Positions 9,654 to 23,755 of a stretch of 24,003 nt of DNA are shown here, piece after piece. A model generated the notes under the pieces. That model saw only the letters and a program-made list of their open reading frames with translations. It was not told where the DNA came from and did no database searches. This DNA comes from Arcobacteraceae bacterium. Its GTDB lineage: Bacteria > Campylobacterota > Campylobacteria > Campylobacterales > Arcobacteraceae. A program made the translations under genes and the position numbers. The stretch is from positions 1-24,003 of the forward strand of contig JBLWVX010000036.1 in assembly GCA_048268245.1 (NCBI GenBank), read 5' to 3'. The number at the start of each line of letters is the position of its first letter. The stretch's first letter is position 1.

Positions 9654-10412
9654 TTATATTATATCTAAAAAATGATTTTGAGCCTCTTTAAAACCAAGAT
9701 TAAAACACTCTTCAAGTTCTTTGAAAGTGAACAAAGAAAAACCTCTTATATGTGGACTTCCTAAATACTCGTGTGTATGAGAGATAGAGTGAGCATGATT
9801 TTCATATAACTGTTTGAAAAGTTTTTTATGAATTGTTTTAATTGGGTTAAGTTTTTTGATGTTTTGTTTACTAGATTTTGGAAATAAATCTACACTAAAA
9901 ATATGATAATCTTTTCCTAATAATGGTTTGATTGGAATATTATCAAATAATCCCCCGTCTATCAAGTGCATACCTTTATATTTTACAGGTTTAAAAAGAG
10001 GAACTAATGCAGATGATGCCATACATAAAGTTACTGTATCACCTATGTTGAAATAGTGAAGTTTTTTCTCTTTTATATCATAAGCATTTACATAAACTGG
10101 TTTTGGAATATCTTCAAGTTTTTCTATAGGTAGTAACTCTTTTATAATCTTATTTGAGGAATCAATTTTAAGTAAGCCATTTCTAAAATAGTTAAATTTT
10201 AAAGCTTGTCTTACATCTTTACTTCCAAAGATTTTTAATTGTTCTTTTGCAGGAATTCCACTTGCATGAGAAGCACTTATGATACTTCCAATTGATGAGC
10301 CACTATAGGCTTTAATATCTATTTTTTTCTCTTCACAAAAATGTAAAACTCCTAAGTGAAAAGCACCTCTAGCAGCACCTCCACCAAGAGCTAAACCCAA
10401 GTTATTTATCAT
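9654..10412 (-). CDS. Patatin-like phospholipase
   Basis: Oxyanion loop LGGGAARG, nucleophile elbow GSSIG, catalytic DGG; overlaps the upstream gene by 11 nt. Confidence 0.92.
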   Translation of the reverse strand: MINNLGLALGGGAARGAFHLGVLHFCEEKKIDIKAYSGSSIGSIISASHASGIPAKEQLKIFGSKDVRQALKFNYFRNGLLKIDSSNKIIKELLPIEKLEDIPKPVYVNAYDIKEKKLHYFNIGDTVTLCMASSALVPLFKPVKYKGMHLIDGGLFDNIPIKPLLGKDYHIFSVDLFPKSSKQNIKKLNPIKTIHKKLFKQLYENHAHSISHTHEYLGSPHIRGFSLFTFKELEECFNLGFKEAQNHFLDII

Positions 10413-11148
10413 TTTTATCTAGCCAATCTATTATTTTAAATTCTCCATCAAAGGTTTCAACAATAGCAGTACAATTCTCAACCCAATCACCACAGTTGAG
10501 GTATTCAATACCATCTATGTCTCTTATTTCAGCTTTGTGGATATGTCCACATATAATACCATCATATCCTTTATTTTTTGCGTGAGTTGATAAGACACTT
10601 TCAAAATCATTTATAAATGAAACTGAGGATTTTACTGAGTCTTTTACATATTTTGATAAAGACCAATATTTTTTTATTCCAAGTTTTTGTCTGATAAAGT
10701 TTAACCCAGCATTTAAATATAAAAGTAAATCATATCCATAATCACCTAGAATGGCTAACCATTTTTTAGTCATAGTAATAGAATCAAAAAAGTCTCCATG
10801 GGTAATATAATACTTTTTACCATTGATTCCTTTATAGTCAAGTTCGTTTGATATATTTAAAGAATCTCCTAAAACAAGTGGAACAAAAGGTCTTATAAAC
10901 TCATCGTGGTTACCAGTAATAAAATGTACATTTGTACCTTTTCGGGCTTTCTTTAAAACTTTTTGAATAACATCAGAGTGAGTTTGTGGCCATACAAATT
11001 TTCTTTTTATAGCCCAACCATCTATAATATCTCCTACTAAAATTAGGTTTTCACTCTCATTATGTTTTAAAAAATTTAATAATTTCTTTGCTTTAGAAAA
11101 TCTTGTTCCTAGGTGTACATCTGATATAAAAATGCTTTTGTATTTCAT
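10402..11148 (-). CDS. Calcineurin-like metallophosphoesterase, PlcP/LpxH2-type (putative phospholipase C)
   Basis: SDVHLG, GDIIDGW, GNHDE, HGD, CGHIH, N-GDWVE-CT motifs. GNHD rather than enterobacterial LpxH GNRD, plus WPQ-H-DV-QK and KARKG segments that I recall from PlcP. Confidence 0.8.
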   Translation of the reverse strand: MKYKSIFISDVHLGTRFSKAKKLLNFLKHNESENLILVGDIIDGWAIKRKFVWPQTHSDVIQKVLKKARKGTNVHFITGNHDEFIRPFVPLVLGDSLNISNELDYKGINGKKYYITHGDFFDSITMTKKWLAILGDYGYDLLLYLNAGLNFIRQKLGIKKYWSLSKYVKDSVKSSVSFINDFESVLSTHAKNKGYDGIICGHIHKAEIRDIDGIEYLNCGDWVENCTAIVETFDGEFKIIDWLDKNDK

Positions 11149-11273: not shown

Positions 11274-11987
11274 ATGTTGAAAACTTTTACAAAGACTTGT
11301 TTATTAGCTGCAGCTGCTATGTTATTTTCGGGGTGTCAAATACACCAAACGATTGTACAAAAAGAACAACTACCAACTGTAAAAGGTCAACAAACTAATA
11401 GTTCTGGAAGTGCAAACTTAAGTACTAACCATCTTCAACAAACAAATAACGAAGTTCAAGTTACTAAAGAGTACTTAAAAATTGCAAATGACCAAGAAAA
11501 ATTTGTAACAAAACAGTATACTTTAGAAGGAACAATAAACTCTTTAGCAACACAAATGATGAGAAACCAAAAGCTTGCAACAAATAAACCTGTAATAATT
11601 ACTTCTTTTGTAAGACTTGACCAATTTAAGAAAACTACTGAGTTTGGTAGAATTGTAAGTGAGAGTTTAATTAATGAACTTTCAAACAAAGGTTTTAATA
11701 TTATTGAATTTAGAGGTCAGTTAGCTGTATCAGTTGATAACAATGGTGAATATTTTATCACTAGAAAAGTTAGACAAATGAAAGGTAAAACACCAAATAC
11801 TTATGTTGTTGTTGGTACTTACTCTAGACAATACAAAAAAGTAATTTTAAATGCAAGAGTTATTGATAATATAACTGGAAGAATTATCACAAGTGCGAGA
11901 TCTACTTATAATCATGGAAGAGCAAATGATTGTATGATGTTCAATGACTGTAGACCAGCTAGAACTGTAAAAATCGTAAAAGAATAA
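11274..11987 (+). CDS. FlgO-family outer membrane lipoprotein
   Basis: Lipobox LFSG-C; ITSFV-L...FGRIVSESLINEL..GFNIIEFR...GEYFITR...VVVGTYS...LNARVID pattern; AAGGGG SD. Confidence 0.8.
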   Translation: MLKTFTKTCLLAAAAMLFSGCQIHQTIVQKEQLPTVKGQQTNSSGSANLSTNHLQQTNNEVQVTKEYLKIANDQEKFVTKQYTLEGTINSLATQMMRNQKLATNKPVIITSFVRLDQFKKTTEFGRIVSESLINELSNKGFNIIEFRGQLAVSVDNNGEYFITRKVRQMKGKTPNTYVVVGTYSRQYKKVILNARVIDNITGRIITSARSTYNHGRANDCMMFNDCRPARTVKIVKE

Positions 11988-11995
11988 CAACCTAA

Positions 11996-12583
11996 ATGAA
12001 ACCCTCTTATTTTAAAAGCTTAAGAAGTATTTTACTTCTTAGTTTTTTAACTCTTTTTCTAACTTCATGTTCATATTATAAAATCCCAATTGATGGTGCA
12101 AATGACTTTCATTCATTAGTTTCAAAATTAGTAGATGAATCAGCAGAAAAAATTAAAAAAAATGTAGCATATGAAGAAGTAGTATTAGTTTCTGATTTTG
12201 TAAATATACAAGATTTAGAGAATAAATCACAACTTGGTTTTTTACTTTCAAATATGTTAAAAGATAAACTTGTATCTTTAGATATTATTGTAAGAGAAGT
12301 AATCTTTGGAAAAGAGTTCCAGTTAGGACAACAAGGCTTTAATATGCTTATTAGAGATAAAAATAAAATCATTTCTGATGAGGTTACACAGGCTAGATAT
12401 GCTGTTGTTGGTACTTACTCTATATCTACAAGAAGTTTAAACATTTTTATAAAGCTTATTGACGTGCAAACAGGAAATATATTAGCATCTTCTCATGAAA
12501 GAACATCAATAGATAAAGAGATTTTAGATTTAGAGGGTGAAGAGAAAAGAAGTATTGTTCTTAGACCAAGATTAGTTTTATAA
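11996..12583 (+). CDS. FlgO-family lipoprotein (paralogue)
   Basis: Lipobox FLTS-C; VSDFVN...LGFLLS...AVVGTYS...IKLIDVQTGNILAS, similar to the upstream gene. Confidence 0.75.
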   Translation: MKPSYFKSLRSILLLSFLTLFLTSCSYYKIPIDGANDFHSLVSKLVDESAEKIKKNVAYEEVVLVSDFVNIQDLENKSQLGFLLSNMLKDKLVSLDIIVREVIFGKEFQLGQQGFNMLIRDKNKIISDEVTQARYAVVGTYSISTRSLNIFIKLIDVQTGNILASSHERTSIDKEILDLEGEEKRSIVLRPRLVL

Positions 12584-17387: not shown

Positions 17388-18221
17388 TTAGCCTTGAGTA
17401 AGCTTTTTATAGGCTTCTATTTTTTCAGAAATTTCATTTTTTACATCTGAAATATCATATATTTCGAAGTTTTCTATAGTTGGATAAGATTTTATAATAT
17501 CTTCAAACTCTGAAATAGTATCATCAATTGATTTAGCTTCAATTACAGGAATATTTAGTTTATTGATTAGTTCTTCATTATATGCTTTATCTTCTCTTTT
17601 AAATAAAACAGGACTATTTCCACATGAAATAGATTCTAAAGCTGTTTGAAGAGAAGCTGTTAATAGGTATTTACTATTTTGAATAGTCTCAACGTATTCT
17701 TCTTCATCAATTACTTCATTAAAGTGTTGTGTAAATACTTTTTCATTTCCTAAAAAGAAATAGTGTCCCATAAGAAGTGTAATATCATGCTTTGATGATT
17801 CTTTTACTCCTTGTAAGAATAGTTCATTATAATCATCATCACCAAAGAAAATAGCTTTTTCAATATTTGGGTTTTTAACCTTTGAATAAAGTTCTTTATC
17901 TACAATAATTTCACTTAATTCTTCTAAATTGTAAACTAGTGAACAAAACTCGCTCATTCCTTCTTGCATAAGTTCGTTTGTTTCATCTGTGTTATAAAGT
18001 AGAATATCTCTTTTTTGCATGATGTTATGAAGATTTCTTACTACATCAATATTTACATATCTTCTAATCCCTAATAAATCTTTCGCAAAAGCACCAGCTC
18101 TAAAATCACTAGTACATAAAACAGGGTCAAACTCTTTTAATTCATTTGCTATTGCTGCACATCTTTTTGCACCTTCTAATCCAATAGCATGACCACTTTT
18201 TGCATAAAAATAAACTTGCAT
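17388..18221 (-). CDS. Hypothetical protein, degenerate PseG/SpsG-like GT-B fold
   Basis: 277 aa, GAGG SD; N-terminal GHAIGLEGAKRCAAIA, middle IFFGDDD and C-terminal LLTASLQTALESISCG resemble PseG/SpsG motif positions. Confidence 0.55.
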   Translation of the reverse strand: MQVYFYAKSGHAIGLEGAKRCAAIANELKEFDPVLCTSDFRAGAFAKDLLGIRRYVNIDVVRNLHNIMQKRDILLYNTDETNELMQEGMSEFCSLVYNLEELSEIIVDKELYSKVKNPNIEKAIFFGDDDYNELFLQGVKESSKHDITLLMGHYFFLGNEKVFTQHFNEVIDEEEYVETIQNSKYLLTASLQTALESISCGNSPVLFKREDKAYNEELINKLNIPVIEAKSIDDTISEFEDIIKSYPTIENFEIYDISDVKNEISEKIEAYKKLTQG

Positions 18222-18340: not shown

Positions 18341-19021
18341 CTAAGTTTTATATGAAATAGCAGCCTTAACAAACTTCTCAAAAATCTTTCTATGTTCTTT
18401 TAGATATATCAAGTATTCAGGGTGCCATTGTAAAGCTAATAAAAAAGGATAATCCTTCTTTTCAATAGATTCAATTATTGATTCATGGGTAGAAGATACA
18501 TCCAGATCTTTACCAACTTTATTTATAGCTTGATTGTGAATACTATTAATGACAATTTTATCTTCCTTTACTGTTTTATGTAAAGAACTATTTTTTTTGA
18601 TCTTTGCTTCTTTTATTGGAAATATTGAATTTTGATGAATTATATATTCATCTAAATCAAGTATTTTTGCATATAAATTTCCTTCAAAATAAATATTTAT
18701 AAGTTGAGCCCCTCTACATATACCAAGAATTGGTAATTCTTCTTTATATGCTTTGTCAATCATCTCTAATTCAAAGGTATCTCTTTTTTTATCAAGTTCA
18801 GTATTATGGGCATCTTTGTGCGCACCATATAAAGTGGGGTCTATATCATTTCCTCCACTAAGGATTAATCCATCTAGTTTTTGAAAATCAATATTGTTTT
18901 TTGATGGTTTTAATCTAATACAAGAAGCCCCTTGTATTTTTAGATTTAGTTTTATAAATATATAGGCAAAAAAGTTGCCGTTATCTGGTAAACATATACC
19001 TATTAGTGGTTTAGTATCCAT
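18341..19021 (-). CDS. Peptidase C26 / gamma-glutamyl-GABA hydrolase family (class I glutamine amidotransferase fold)
   Basis: DGLILSGGNDIDP, RDTFE, nucleophile LGICRGAQ, NSIHNQAI, QWHPE (intact Cys-His-Glu triad). Confidence 0.92.
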   Translation of the reverse strand: MDTKPLIGICLPDNGNFFAYIFIKLNLKIQGASCIRLKPSKNNIDFQKLDGLILSGGNDIDPTLYGAHKDAHNTELDKKRDTFELEMIDKAYKEELPILGICRGAQLINIYFEGNLYAKILDLDEYIIHQNSIFPIKEAKIKKNSSLHKTVKEDKIVINSIHNQAINKVGKDLDVSSTHESIIESIEKKDYPFLLALQWHPEYLIYLKEHRKIFEKFVKAAISYKT

Positions 19022-20001
19022 TTTTCAACTCTTTCTTCCCAACTTGTAAGATTTATAAGATTATCAAGATGTGTAATATACTCATTTGATAATAACTCTA
19101 AGTTTTTTGTGTCATTAGCAAGATTTTCTACTAAAATCCATCTATTCCACTCTTCACTAATTTGCCAATTAGAAGAGCCTACCATTGAGTTTGATAATCT
19201 ATAGTGAAAAGCTGGTCTTGGTTTTATTTTTTCATTTGGTAGTTTATTTCTTACTCTTTTTTCATCAATAAAAGTTAGAATAGGGAGTAAATCTAAAGAT
19301 CTATTTCTAGTAGGATTGAACTTTAAGTAGTCATCTATAAACTCTTGTATCGTTGGCTTATAAGAATTATCTAAAATGTGCTTTATGTAATCAGTTTTAA
19401 AATTATCAATAAAAGGGCTTATTTTTCTTGCAATATCGATTTTTGCATCTTTATTTATAAAGTCTTGAAGAATTAAATAGGCCTTTGTATAGTTCAATAA
19501 GCTTTCTATCTCAAGTGATACCACTTCAATATTTATATGTAAACCAAAGGCATAATATAATTTATGTTTTGTACCTTTTGCATCATTTATTGCAAGTTTA
19601 TTTGTAAGTTTTTCAACAAGTGAAATCTCATCTAAAGGTAATGGTGGAGTACTTATCTCATAAGGAACTATATCTTTTGATAAATCACCAATTGTTTTTT
19701 CAATAGCTTCAATATCATTTGCTTTTATATCAATACCTATTGTTTGAGAAAGTTTTTTTGCACCTTCTTTTATCTTCTGTTTAGTTAGAAGCTCAAAATC
19801 AAGCTCTAAAATAAAATCTCCATACTTTGATTCTAGTTTATAAAAGAAGTTATTTATCTTTTTCTCTTTAAAGTGAAAATCCTCTTTTAAGATATTTAAG
19901 ATTTCATCTAACTCAATATTTGAAAACTCTATTTCAAAACCTACATGTCTTATTTTATTTTCATAATTGTTTTTGATTTTAGGATTTAGAAAATTACTCA
20001 T
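19003..20001 (-). CDS. Putative amidoligase (COOH-NH2 ligase, glutamine synthetase/GCS2 fold, Amidoligase_2-like)
   Basis: VGFEIEF (ExE), PYEISTPP, FGLHINIE, NPTRNRSLD, RPAFHYRL. Confidence 0.8.
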   Translation of the reverse strand: MSNFLNPKIKNNYENKIRHVGFEIEFSNIELDEILNILKEDFHFKEKKINNFFYKLESKYGDFILELDFELLTKQKIKEGAKKLSQTIGIDIKANDIEAIEKTIGDLSKDIVPYEISTPPLPLDEISLVEKLTNKLAINDAKGTKHKLYYAFGLHINIEVVSLEIESLLNYTKAYLILQDFINKDAKIDIARKISPFIDNFKTDYIKHILDNSYKPTIQEFIDDYLKFNPTRNRSLDLLPILTFIDEKRVRNKLPNEKIKPRPAFHYRLSNSMVGSSNWQISEEWNRWILVENLANDTKNLELLSNEYITHLDNLINLTSWEERVEKWILNH

Positions 20002-22267
20002 TTGTTTTTCCTTCTTGTAAAGCTTTTTTATAGTATCTGTTTAGGTCAAATAATCCAGCTTCAATAGGATTTGTTTCATAAAATTTATTTTGAAACCAAT
20101 CATAAACTTGCCAGAAATTTTTATCGTTTCTATTTATAAAAAACTTAGAAAGCTTTGATTCATCAACATTTCCTTTTAAAAGCTCAAAAAATTCTTTGAT
20201 ATCATCTTCTTCTACAACAACAAAATAATTAGGGTAAGACCCTATAAATCCTTCTATTATGTTTATTTTGTCCTTTTTAACATTTAACCGAGCTTCTTCA
20301 TTAAATAAAAAGGCAACACTATCATGCCATCTATTTATAACTGCTGTGTAGACTAAATCTTCTTTTTTCATTTTGAATCTAACATATACTAAATTGAAGT
20401 TATCGCTTGAAAACTTTTTGAATTTGTTTATTTCATTGTGAAAAATTATACTTTTTAGTGCTTTTTGAATATCATCTTTTGTTTTAAACTCTTTTATATT
20501 TTTATAAAAATCAACTTTTGTATCAATAAAGTTTATTTCATCTTTAGGGGTTTTTGTATAGTCTAATAAGTTTACAACAAACTCTTTAAATTCATAATCA
20601 ACTTTAGGATCTAAGTTTGAGGGTGTATATGTAGCTACTTGTTTTGCGATATCTCCTATATACCAACTATTAAAGATATCATTTCTTTTGCTTCGTGGAA
20701 GATACTCTAAAAAGTTGCTTTCTCCCTCAATTCTTAGTCTATCCATATATTTTCTTACAAGTATTTTATGTTGAGTATTTCCATATACATCAAAACCTGC
20801 AACAAGAGAGTAATAAAGTCTTTCAAGTAAAGGATAATCTATAACCCATAAAGTCTTAGGTATATCTCCTAGAGCTCCTTTATGTACAGAAGAAGAATCA
20901 AAGTGTCTATATATTGTTAAAATAGCATCATTATCTTTTTCTCCATAGTTGTTTCCTTTCCAAATAGATTGGAAATCTAAAGGACTATTGTATTTTTCAT
21001 AAAGTTTATTTTTGTTTTTATAGTAATCAATAGTTACACTATTATATTTATAAATACTAAAAACATCTAAAATCCCACTATTACCACCATATTCATTTGG
21101 TAAAGATAAGTTTTTTTGATTCTGTATTAAAAAATCTTTATCTTGAATTGTGTAATCATATTTAGGATCTTTAAATGCAACCCAAAAATGGTCATTTATA
21201 ACATTTAATGCAACTTGTCCTTTACAAACTGGACCTCTAATATATGTCATAATAAAGTAGTGTATATTGTCAAGCATAAATTCATATCTTGATTTTGCAG
21301 GAATTTGCTTAAATGCAATCAAAGGATTTGCAGCTATTTTAGGTTCATAGCTAGGCATATTAGGTTTTTCTTCCCAAGTAGGTCTTATAAATAAATCTTT
21401 ATATCTTTGTAACTTATCTTCATTTAACTTATAAACCATGTGTGTTTTATGTACTATAGTAGATGTTATTTTTTTAAATTTATAGAAAAACTTCTCTTTA
21501 GCTTTTCCATAAGGAACTCTTGTTTTTACAGCATCTGAGCCATTTGCATTGTATGTTCTATATAAAGAGTAAAAGTTATCATCCCCATCAAACTTGATGT
21601 GAGCTAAGAAAAGATGTTCATAAATATATCTTGCAGTAACTTGATGTTTCATATCTGGGTTATTTAAGAACAACTCAAATGCTTTGATAATTTTAGAAGG
21701 TTTTTGTTTCTCTTCTTCTTGTTTTTTTATATCACCTTTAAGCCATGAAATAAGCATTTCATGCTCTTTTTTATTAAGTGCTGGGAAACCATAAGGCATA
21801 CCATGATTTGGATTATCTTCTAAATATTCATCTAGTTCTTCCATATTTTTACTACATTGAAGGTCATCTGTTTCAGAGGCATAATCTCCTATATTTTCAG
21901 GTTTTAGTTGTTTTTGCTTTAAAAGCTTGGACATAATACTTTCTTGATTATATTTTTTCAATACAGAGTGAAAACCTAAAGCCTCCCACTCTTTAGATGT
22001 TGTTGCGTCTATAAACATTCTTGAAGGTTTTGCAGGATCAATTCTATTGTCATAAATTTCTTCTTTTGTGGCACCTCTTAGTAAGCCATCAACAGAACTA
22101 AGTTTTAATTGACAAGGTGAGTTGTAACATGAGTGGCAAACTACACATCTATTGTCAAGTATAGGTTTAATATCTTTCATAAAAGATGGTTCATCATTAC
22201 TTTTAGCTAGTAATATAGTTTGTAAAAATATACTTATAAAAAGTATTAAGAAGTTAGTTTTTTTCAT
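19994..22267 (-). CDS. cti: Fatty acid cis/trans isomerase (periplasmic heme-c protein)
   Basis: Signal peptide; RCVVCHSCYNSPCQL heme-c motif, MPYGFP, YEHLFLAH, IRGPVCKGQVALNVI-DHFWV, RHFDSSSV, YYSLVAGFDVYGN, YMDRLRIEGESNFL, GSYPN, GLFDLNRY; 757 aa. Confidence 0.92.
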   Translation of the reverse strand: MKKTNFLILFISIFLQTILLAKSNDEPSFMKDIKPILDNRCVVCHSCYNSPCQLKLSSVDGLLRGATKEEIYDNRIDPAKPSRMFIDATTSKEWEALGFHSVLKKYNQESIMSKLLKQKQLKPENIGDYASETDDLQCSKNMEELDEYLEDNPNHGMPYGFPALNKKEHEMLISWLKGDIKKQEEEKQKPSKIIKAFELFLNNPDMKHQVTARYIYEHLFLAHIKFDGDDNFYSLYRTYNANGSDAVKTRVPYGKAKEKFFYKFKKITSTIVHKTHMVYKLNEDKLQRYKDLFIRPTWEEKPNMPSYEPKIAANPLIAFKQIPAKSRYEFMLDNIHYFIMTYIRGPVCKGQVALNVINDHFWVAFKDPKYDYTIQDKDFLIQNQKNLSLPNEYGGNSGILDVFSIYKYNSVTIDYYKNKNKLYEKYNSPLDFQSIWKGNNYGEKDNDAILTIYRHFDSSSVHKGALGDIPKTLWVIDYPLLERLYYSLVAGFDVYGNTQHKILVRKYMDRLRIEGESNFLEYLPRSKRNDIFNSWYIGDIAKQVATYTPSNLDPKVDYEFKEFVVNLLDYTKTPKDEINFIDTKVDFYKNIKEFKTKDDIQKALKSIIFHNEINKFKKFSSDNFNLVYVRFKMKKEDLVYTAVINRWHDSVAFLFNEEARLNVKKDKINIIEGFIGSYPNYFVVVEEDDIKEFFELLKGNVDESKLSKFFINRNDKNFWQVYDWFQNKFYETNPIEAGLFDLNRYYKKALQEGKTNE

Positions 22268-23624
22268 TTGATTCTTCTATTTCTTTTATGGCATTAATAG
22301 CTGCTGGAAGTAACTCTTCACTTAATGCAGGATGAATATAAAGCATATCTTTTAAATGTCTTATATCATTGTCTATATGCATAATAGTTAAAACTTGGTG
22401 TATCATGGTTGAGCTTTGTGGTCCTATCATATGACAACCTAGGATTTCATAGTTGTTTTTATCTACAATAAATTTAGTAAAAGCATATTCAACTTTCATA
22501 GCTTGGGCTTTTGCACTTGCTTTCCATGTAGTACTTGAAGCTACAAAATTAAGGTTTTTTTCTTGAGCTTGTTTTTGAGTTAAACCAACACTTGCTATTT
22601 CAGGATAAGTGAAAACTGCATGGGGCATGTATTTAAACTTTAATGCTTCATTCTTATCTTCATATAGATATTTAAAAAGATGATTCATTTCATAAGCTGC
22701 TGCATGTTGAAGCATATATTTTCCTGCTGCATCACCTACTACATATATGCCTTTAGCATTAGTTTGAAAATACTTATCTCTTTTTATAAAGCCTCTTTCA
22801 TCTACTTGTATTGAAGTATTTTCAAGTTTTAAATCTTTTGCATTTGATTCTCTTCCTGTTGCATAAAGTAAGGCTTCACTTTTATGAGTTTTTATTGTTT
22901 CATCTTTATTTTCTAAAGTTATATGAAATAAATCGTCTGTATATTTTGCATCTTTTATTGTGGTATTAAACTTTATATCTACATATTTACTAAACTCATT
23001 TTTAAATACTTCTTGAATCTGCTCATCTTCATTTGAAAGAAGAGTATTGCTTCTAACTATTAGTTTTGTATCAATTTTTAAAGCACTAAAAACATTTGCC
23101 AATTCACATGCAATAAAACCAGAACCAACAATCGTAATAGATTTGGGAATATTATCTAAAGGGAAAATATCATCACTAGTCCACGCTTTTTCAAAAGGTG
23201 GTTTTAAAGGTTTTGTTCCTGTAGCGATTATTATATTAGGAGCTGTAAGTTTCTCTTTGTTTACTTCAACTATATTGTCTGCTAAGAAAAAGCCTTCTCC
23301 TCTATATAAATGCACGTTTTCATTTAGCTTTGATTTATAGATTTCATCAACACTATCTATAAAAGAGTTATTGTTTTCAAAAATCTTTTTTATATCAACT
23401 TCTTTAATTTCACTTGATATAAAATGTTTATGAGAGTTTTCAATACTTCTTATAACATCTGCATAACCAATTAGAAGTTTTGATGGCACACAACCTCTGT
23501 TTGCACAAGTTCCACCTAGACTTGATTTTTCTATCAATGCAACTTTTTTGCCTAAAACTCCTGCTTTTTTTGCAATATTTGAGGCTCTTCCTCCTCCAAT
23601 GATGATTAAGTCATAATTTTTCAT
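22254..23624 (-). CDS. Flavoprotein disulfide reductase (LPD/mycothione/glutathione reductase family), probably NADPH-dependent
   Basis: FAD loop IIIGGG, redox GGTCANRGCVPSK, IIIATG, GSGFIACE followed by IVRS, ATGR, GD, C-terminal HPALSEE His-Glu dyad. Confidence 0.88.
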   Translation of the reverse strand: MKNYDLIIIGGGRASNIAKKAGVLGKKVALIEKSSLGGTCANRGCVPSKLLIGYADVIRSIENSHKHFISSEIKEVDIKKIFENNNSFIDSVDEIYKSKLNENVHLYRGEGFFLADNIVEVNKEKLTAPNIIIATGTKPLKPPFEKAWTSDDIFPLDNIPKSITIVGSGFIACELANVFSALKIDTKLIVRSNTLLSNEDEQIQEVFKNEFSKYVDIKFNTTIKDAKYTDDLFHITLENKDETIKTHKSEALLYATGRESNAKDLKLENTSIQVDERGFIKRDKYFQTNAKGIYVVGDAAGKYMLQHAAAYEMNHLFKYLYEDKNEALKFKYMPHAVFTYPEIASVGLTQKQAQEKNLNFVASSTTWKASAKAQAMKVEYAFTKFIVDKNNYEILGCHMIGPQSSTMIHQVLTIMHIDNDIRHLKDMLYIHPALSEELLPAAINAIKEIEESNEKN

Positions 23625-23681: not shown

Positions 23682-23710
23682 ATTATAGGGTAGTTTTCTC
23701 AAAGTTTACT
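23682..23710 (-). promoter_or_regulatory. Putative promoter of the reductase-cti operon
   Basis: Minus strand AGTAAACT-ttg-AGAAAACT-accc-TATAAT, 57 nt upstream of the ATG. Confidence 0.45.
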
Positions 23711-23755
23711 TATACAAAAATAATAAAAAAGGTTTTTGTTGAAAAGATTAATAGG

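Follow-up and report, generated by a model that had tools for sequence, protein, structure and literature searches.

Escherichia coli has a gamma-glutamylation pathway, PuuA/PuuD, in which a ligase of the glutamine synthetase (GS) fold is matched with a C26 hydrolase carrying a Cys-His-Glu triad. Closest in composition to the locus described here, a four-gene block (RED-cti-LIG-C26) of an Arcobacteraceae bacterium, is the second family of Iyer and co-workers (2008), whose published passage pairs a GCS2-sized ligase with a class-I glutamine amidotransferase (GATase)/C26 peptidase and guesses at glutathione-like peptides as products (PMC2588565). According to the same passage a gamma-glutamyl cyclotransferase stands in for the peptidase partner in firmicutes (PMC2588565), a swap that favours removal of gamma-glutamyl groups over supply of ammonia as the partner's task. 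The block lies at 18341-23624 of contig JBLWVX010000036.1 (C36), whose entire 24,003 nucleotides are the stretch analysed, called the window below; the source genome is 99% complete, homologues with names put it in Arcobacteraceae, and the sequencing runs that cover it best are oyster and mollusc metagenomes. One run bearing an RNA-Seq label is probably DNA.

All four genes are on the minus strand. RED (22254-23624, 456 amino acids) is an open reading frame (ORF) with the Pfam domains Pyr_redox_2 and Pyr_redox_dim; cti (19994-22267, 757 amino acids) matches CTI, PF06934, at E 1.8e-221; LIG (19003-20001, 332 amino acids) matches Amidoligase_2, PF12224, at E 4.3e-65; and C26 (18341-19021, 226 amino acids) matches Peptidase_C26, PF07722, at E 7.5e-45. 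Each ORF overlaps the next, by 14, 8 and 19 nt in that order. A preliminary description of the locus had given these ORFs, strand, coordinates and overlaps correctly, and the enzyme classes it assigned to the four genes are upheld by Pfam matches and intact motifs. Its proposal of a dedicated four-gene system has fared worse. The block is intact in three of the 20 genomes of the family that have RED, cti and LIG, is broken both ways at its chromosomal slot, and did not turn up beyond the family in the samples defined below; across genomes RED and cti are not steadily linked to LIG and C26, which is largely the outcome the description had named as speaking against it.

The real conserved unit of the four genes is the pair LIG+C26, a pairing already known since 2008, and RED and cti are likely separate stress genes that in a few Arcobacteraceae have come to lie behind one promoter. 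The reading that we favour, and consider reasonably probable, is that of a stress operon built by accretion: an amine is gamma-glutamylated by LIG, C26 reverses the reaction, and RED and Cti act separately. The description's fallback, an accidental assembly of two stress modules, thus fits best, except that the modules number three (LIG+C26, RED and cti) and that LIG+C26 appears in the published passage (PMC2588565). The block differs from that pair in its coupling to a disulfide reductase and cti, and the claim that the four-gene combination is undescribed holds insofar as no paper on it was found in a literature lacking most subscription papers. As a finding the block is modest: it puts an enzyme pair predicted in 2008 into a new genomic context. 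Its practical worth is that of a compact and culturable setting for identifying the substrate of the widespread PF12224+C26 pair, and likewise that of the orphan mycothione-reductase-like RED, present in 56 of 151 Arcobacteraceae genomes.

The ligase and its hydrolase partner

The four genes were followed through those 151 family genomes, with at least 52% identity defining a RED orthologue and strong matches defining LIG (one extra genome, with a weak cross-match to YbdK, was left out of the count). Beyond the family, a sample of 301 genomes of the class was surveyed, and other phyla were represented by the best 80 of 563 metagenome LIG loci and by 7 of 11 plasmid matches. In 41 of 42 Campylobacterota loci the gene directly 3' of LIG is C26, the single miss being at a contig end, and the two are adjacent in 55 of the 61 metagenome loci that have room for both. 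All 30 LIG homologues of 582-2000 amino acids are LIG-C26 fusions; a model of one natural fusion (pTM 0.73, pLDDT 81) has scores that leave the packing of the two domains undecided. The triad Cys102/His200/Glu202 of C26 is invariant in 58/58 LIG partners, and its solved relatives include Lin1909 and PuuD (structure 6vtv). C26 is accordingly predicted to be a gamma-glutamyl hydrolase of the class-I glutamine-amidotransferase fold and the steady partner of LIG.

The predicted structure of LIG (pLDDT 91) finds as its top 19 structural matches only members of the superfamily of GS and glutamate-cysteine ligase (GCL), namely GS, GCL, GmaS, YbdK-like proteins, PafA and Dop, at Z 7.6-12.2, as against Z of at most 5.6 for unrelated structures. 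The match to GS has Z 12.2 (rmsd, root mean square deviation, 3.9 over 218 aligned residues) and that to GCL Z 11.6 (rmsd 3.9, 235 aligned); Foldseek gives the same ranking with weak E-values (best 1.4e-3). Residues E23, E25, E115, N157, R232, R262, H266 and R268 are invariant across 150 sequences, and LIG is predicted from the model to be a GS/GCL-fold carboxylate-amine ligase with acidic metal ligands, as the preliminary description had supposed of the fold. The modelled fold leaves the choice among the reactions of the superfamily unsettled. At sequence level a LIG profile had no match among the sequences of solved structures and none to the YbdK of the same genome, and LIG has no match to PF00120 (Gln-synt_C), the sole PF00120 gene of the genome being on a different contig. 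His266, invariant in the same 150 sequences, stands in an H-x-R motif at a position where GS/GCL enzymes carry a metal-binding E-x-R; it may mark a different metal or substrate.

LIG and C26 share with the 2008 pair PF12224 and a GCS2-like size, the fold (as modelled), and an adjacent triad-bearing GATase-like peptidase. The H266 of the H-x-R motif, the fusions of LIG with C26 and with VTT domains, and the osmotic and membrane neighbours go beyond what the published passage of that paper contains. No paper reporting a tested substrate of the pair was found, in a literature coverage without most subscription papers, and a Vibrio amidoligase paper was set aside as it concerns an ATP-grasp protein. 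The likeness to PuuA/PuuD extends to a GS-fold ligase and a C26 hydrolase with the Cys-His-Glu triad, but LIG is a PF12224 protein instead of Gln-synt_C, and the 77 bits of C26 fall short of the 266 required for PuuD. Among the scanned neighbours of the pair, oxidases, dehydrogenases and polyamine transporters do not recur. With no PuuA-type ligase in the pair, a PuuD score below cut-off and no such recurring genes among those neighbours, an identity with the Puu/Pau pathway was rejected.

What does recur beside LIG+C26 is of another kind: ectABC in six genomes of genus g13 (one lineage), BCCT in three genomes, YqaA/VTT beside LIG in 11 of the 80 metagenome loci (a raw count, two of the loci being the same), and AI-2E transporters, MscS and DUF389 (raw occurrences). 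These neighbours point to a role of the pair in osmotic or membrane stress. Among the neighbours scanned, genes related to cysteine or sulfur do not recur beside LIG. A histidine kinase of the Cache type, present near several loci, was discarded as a link, its copies across lineages being paralogues of 31-40% identity from a large family. At P0196, L129:4930-6945 and L128:689-3712 there are two VTT/DedA-LIG fusions and one putative ORF with an NAD-dependent epimerase domain before LIG. A dihydroneopterin aldolase gene, so annotated, adjoins the pair in Dinoroseobacter shibae (L052:2207-2602), and a gene of similar appearance does so in G091 (L030:6225-6584); from these two cases a folate or pterin link of the pair is possible.

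In the accreted operon that we favour, LIG, using ATP and Mg, would activate the gamma-carboxyl of glutamate and couple it to an amine, and C26 would strip the glutamate off again through its Cys-His-Glu triad, giving a PuuA/PuuD-like cycle of tagging and release. Judging by the neighbours, the acceptor would be an amine, either small or handled at the membrane, that is connected with osmotic or envelope stress, rather than a thiol. A different division of labour is possible but unlikely: the operon would be just as loose, and LIG+C26 would form a two-subunit glutamine-dependent amidotransferase in which C26 frees ammonia and LIG amidates a carboxylate, possibly that of a lipid or lipid-linked envelope component. 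GatD/MurT follows an analogous logic. The steady coupling and frequent fusion of the two proteins would suit such an enzyme, as would the lack of modifying enzymes between ligation and hydrolysis, unlike in Puu pathways, and the VTT-LIG fusions, YqaA neighbours and one PLD neighbour. A hydrophobic helix insert, found in 17 of the 58 C26 partners and in fusions, argues the same way, but the C26 of the window is without it. Some LIG genes, moreover, have no C26, the solved C26 relatives are hydrolases of gamma-glutamyl amides such as PuuD, and the firmicute homologues of the published passage have a cyclotransferase instead (PMC2588565).

The reductase and the isomerase

RED has intact motifs, CxxxxC at residues 40-45 and His431/Glu436, and these cysteines (Cys40/Cys45), His431/Glu436 and Arg191 are each conserved in at least 95% of 120 orthologues. 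Arg191 sits where the second Rossmann strand ends, a position at which arginine is a mark of NADPH use and NAD-type enzymes have an acidic residue. The nearest solved structure is mycothione reductase 8qcj (E 1.5e-67), and the best plasmid matches, at ~32%, are haloarchaeal proteins annotated as dihydrolipoyl dehydrogenase. That label is doubtful for RED, because the RED query matches one gene only in the source genome and the genome has no match to the E2 domain PF00198 (other lipoyl proteins were not searched for). Dihydrolipoamide dehydrogenase (E3) was rejected on the missing PF00198, an Arg191 that is not acidic and a score of 356 bits against a cut-off of 409, in agreement with the earlier assignment to the small-disulfide reductases. 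RED likewise scores too low to be called a mycothione reductase (NF005884/TIGR03452, 335 against 501 and 313 against 636 bits; mycothiol genes were not searched for) or a glutathione reductase (Gor, 327 against 480 bits), and it falls under all 25 NCBIfam cut-offs among the matches listed. Thus RED resembles mycothione, glutathione and haloarchaeal bis-gamma-glutamylcystine reductases in CxxxxC, the C-terminal His-Glu and a predicted preference for NADPH, and differs from them in lying below every NCBIfam cut-off listed (335 against 501 for Mtr). It is predicted to be a group-I flavoprotein, mycothione-reductase-like, that reduces a small disulfide with NADPH, which in the favoured reading it would do separately from the other three proteins.

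Cti proteins of the Pseudomonas and Vibrio type are cis/trans isomerases of fatty acids. The window's Cti is like them in its full-length PF06934 match, a CxxCH (residues 41-45) and a signal-like N-terminal stretch (hydrophobic residues 6-20, the export signal being judged from hydrophobicity alone), and is predicted to be an exported haem-c fatty-acid cis/trans isomerase. Given that N-terminus it would work outside the cytoplasm, away from RED, LIG and C26, and would separately stiffen the membrane from the periplasm. Its context differs, cti being present in 62 of the 151 family genomes and near LIG in just 5 of the 20 that have both.

Distribution and recombination

LIG is found in 29 of the family genomes, and RED, cti and LIG together in 20, of which three have the window-type operon, two a convergent cluster and 15 the genes split. 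The window's gene order on a single strand is confined to three genomes of one genus (G000, G001 and G002). Within 5 kb, RED-cti are linked in 7 of 33 genomes, RED-LIG in 9 of 28 and cti-LIG in 5 of 20; many unlinked pairs lie on different contigs, and flanks that were fetched show other neighbours. Between mnmG and ccoG-pyrG-recJ, the slot is filled by RED-cti in G004, by RED alone in G005, and in a second genus (G128, G133, G155, G167) by RED overlapping LIG-C26. Outside the family, none of 12 LIG genomes among the 301 sampled has a RED orthologue and three genomes have RED with LIG absent; of five LIG genomes tested there, none has cti by a search that matched 62 family genomes, and one has no group-I reductase match at all. 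Of the 42 metagenome loci with enough upstream DNA (from the best 80 of 563), two have a RED orthologue and one has cti, all with a window-like LIG, and neither gene was seen at the 35 loci with a distant LIG and at least 2.5 kb upstream or at the seven plasmid loci read.

The alleles themselves are mosaic. Compared with G001 the window is 92-93% identical in nucleotides in the flanks and 94% in LIG, and 80% in cti; compared with G002, cti is 95-100% identical over most of its length and LIG 74%. A contig from run X6 carries a near-identical cti-LIG-C26 (16 differences in 5.2 kb) together with a different RED allele, ~84% identical (141 differences in 0.87 kb). Alleles of cti and RED have thus been swapped singly and in place, between and within species, at 19994-23624, and the region behind mnmG is, on these comparisons, a recombination hot spot. 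That cti goes uncovered in runs X12 and X14 proves nothing. The GC and GC3 of all four genes are like those of the neighbouring genes.

Several observations weigh against genes so loosely gathered. The replacement of alleles in place with the order kept suggests selection for the operon, and RED of the window's subclade adjoins cti, LIG or C26 in 14 of the 17 examined, versus 0 of 14 in other clades. In G107 and G122 the four genes occur in a convergent arrangement in which LIG belongs to a different clade, and one interrupted case among the 80 metagenome loci (L073) reads RED-cti-DUF389-LIG-C26. At L170:7299-9367, in a genome of another family (G401), a RED (73%) overlaps a window-type C26 (72%); LIG and cti were not found in G401, and the overlap is likely the remnant of a transferred cassette. 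A Sulfurimonas metagenome-assembled genome (L044/G448) contains LIG and RED on separate contigs. The pair itself is less than universal, as four of the seven alphaproteobacterial plasmid loci have no annotated C26 beside LIG. Finally, RED is present in 28 of the 29 family LIG genomes, versus 21.1 expected within genera, and when physically linked cases are removed it is still present in 19 of 20, versus 14.1 expected.

To us this excess of RED with LIG reflects stress genes pooled among salt-tolerant lineages, together with a single cassette that moves and decays, rather than a metabolic dependence. Dependence is disfavoured because ectC is as frequent as RED (28 of the 29 LIG genomes, 23.3 expected), because a dnaE tree of 31 genomes traces some joint losses to one event each at the slot, because half of the RED genomes (28 of 56) are without LIG, and because the tests ignore kinship within genera and genome size, for which reason their P values are not taken as proof. 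Within genera, RED and cti do not co-occur in excess (33 against 31.6 expected), and neither does the YbdK-type ligase with RED (16 against 15.9) or with LIG.

Glutathione-type capacity and the thiol question

The preliminary description had placed the block in a lineage without known glutathione synthesis, and the genome bears this out in having no match to canonical GshA (PF04262). Three ATP-grasp matches scanned for GshB are RimK or RimK-like and below GshB cut-offs, a fourth, weak match being unscanned. A GshA/GshB/Gor system was rejected, as no match scanned reaches the level of any of the three. Elsewhere in the genome (G000:C4:54456-57049; L053:3457-6050) genes for a YbdK-type carboxylate-amine ligase and a gamma-glutamyltransferase overlap. 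The two are a second gamma-glutamyl module, whose YbdK-type ligase, present in 26 of the 151 family genomes, could make gamma-Glu-Cys. At G000:C6:61138-67259 (L055) the genes for an M20 peptidase, for a pair of RimK-like ATP-grasp ligases (one ending in a helix-hairpin-helix region) and for an 861-residue protein with a weak DNRLRE match stand together, and the cluster is possibly a peptide-ligation system.

For at least one genome of the Campylobacterota, that of Nautilia, the redox thiol has been called unrecognised (PMC2628731), and a new thiol system of the Arcobacteraceae would fill such a place: LIG would make a gamma-glutamyl thiol (gamma-Glu-Cys-like), RED would recycle its disulfide, C26 would degrade it and Cti would be co-regulated. 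We consider this improbable. GCL is among the top structural matches of LIG, glutathione-like peptides were suggested for its family by the published passage of Iyer et al. (PMC2588565), and the haloarchaeal gamma-Glu-Cys reductase, whose homologues are, by the published excerpt, often annotated as dihydrolipoamide dehydrogenase, offers a precedent (PMC7278568). RED is nearest mycothione reductase in a genome without E2 or GshA, it accompanies LIG in 28 of 29 genomes and shows no such excess with the YbdK-type ligase, and it overlaps LIG directly in the four genomes of the second genus. Against this, LIG is missing from half of the RED genomes, RED from all 12 LIG genomes outside the family and any group-I reductase match from one of five; ectC accompanies LIG equally often, joint losses at one slot are in several cases a single event, RED and cti have no within-genus excess, and the neighbours scanned hold no recurring cysteine or sulfur genes. 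The wider form, that a RED-LIG-C26 core of marine Arcobacteraceae travels between genera as a cassette and acquires cti, seems to us no better founded. If true, the thiol reading would give Campylobacterota a new low-molecular-weight thiol system and PF12224 its first substrate; a positive result would answer an open question, and a negative one would point the pair to osmotic or membrane chemistry.

That the hot spot behind mnmG has by mere position gathered unrelated accessory genes without shared regulation or benefit, as the unrelated genes in the slot of G001, G002 and G128 and the heavy mosaicism might suggest, is very improbable against precise start-stop overlaps that recur in varied combinations (RED/cti, RED/LIG, RED/C26) and the meeting of the same genes elsewhere (G107, G122, G164, L073, G401).

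Operon layout and promoter

RED-cti-LIG-C26 is likely a single transcript; the genes overlap, and a promoter-like site recurs upstream of RED. The site, a candidate TAAGT ... TATAAT at 23682..23712 on the minus strand, ~58 nt upstream of RED, is likely of sigma70 type and may resemble the Campylobacter RpoD consensus. It is the sole match in the window, where 0.67 are expected by chance, and hence is not significant alone; both elements also stand upstream of RED in six of seven orthologous regions. A generic promoter scan of the window gave fewer sites than shuffled sequences. The preliminary description had taken the flanking gaps as bounding one unit: a single operon remains likely, but the 5' gap reaches the contig end, and the 3' gap of 119 nt, in which no terminator-like site was found, leads to another same-strand gene, which leaves the 3' boundary of the unit unfixed.

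Other features of the window

The gene next downstream (17388-18221, minus strand, 277 amino acids) has no Pfam or NCBIfam match and in most relatives is likewise conserved immediately downstream of the slot; its N-terminal part looks reminiscent of PseG-like sugar-nucleotide hydrolases, and it may share the four-gene transcript. Farther along the window, 9654-11148 (minus strand) and 11274-12583 (plus strand) carry an overlapping pair that by motif is patatin-type esterase-like and metallophosphoesterase-like, and two tandem FlgO genes.

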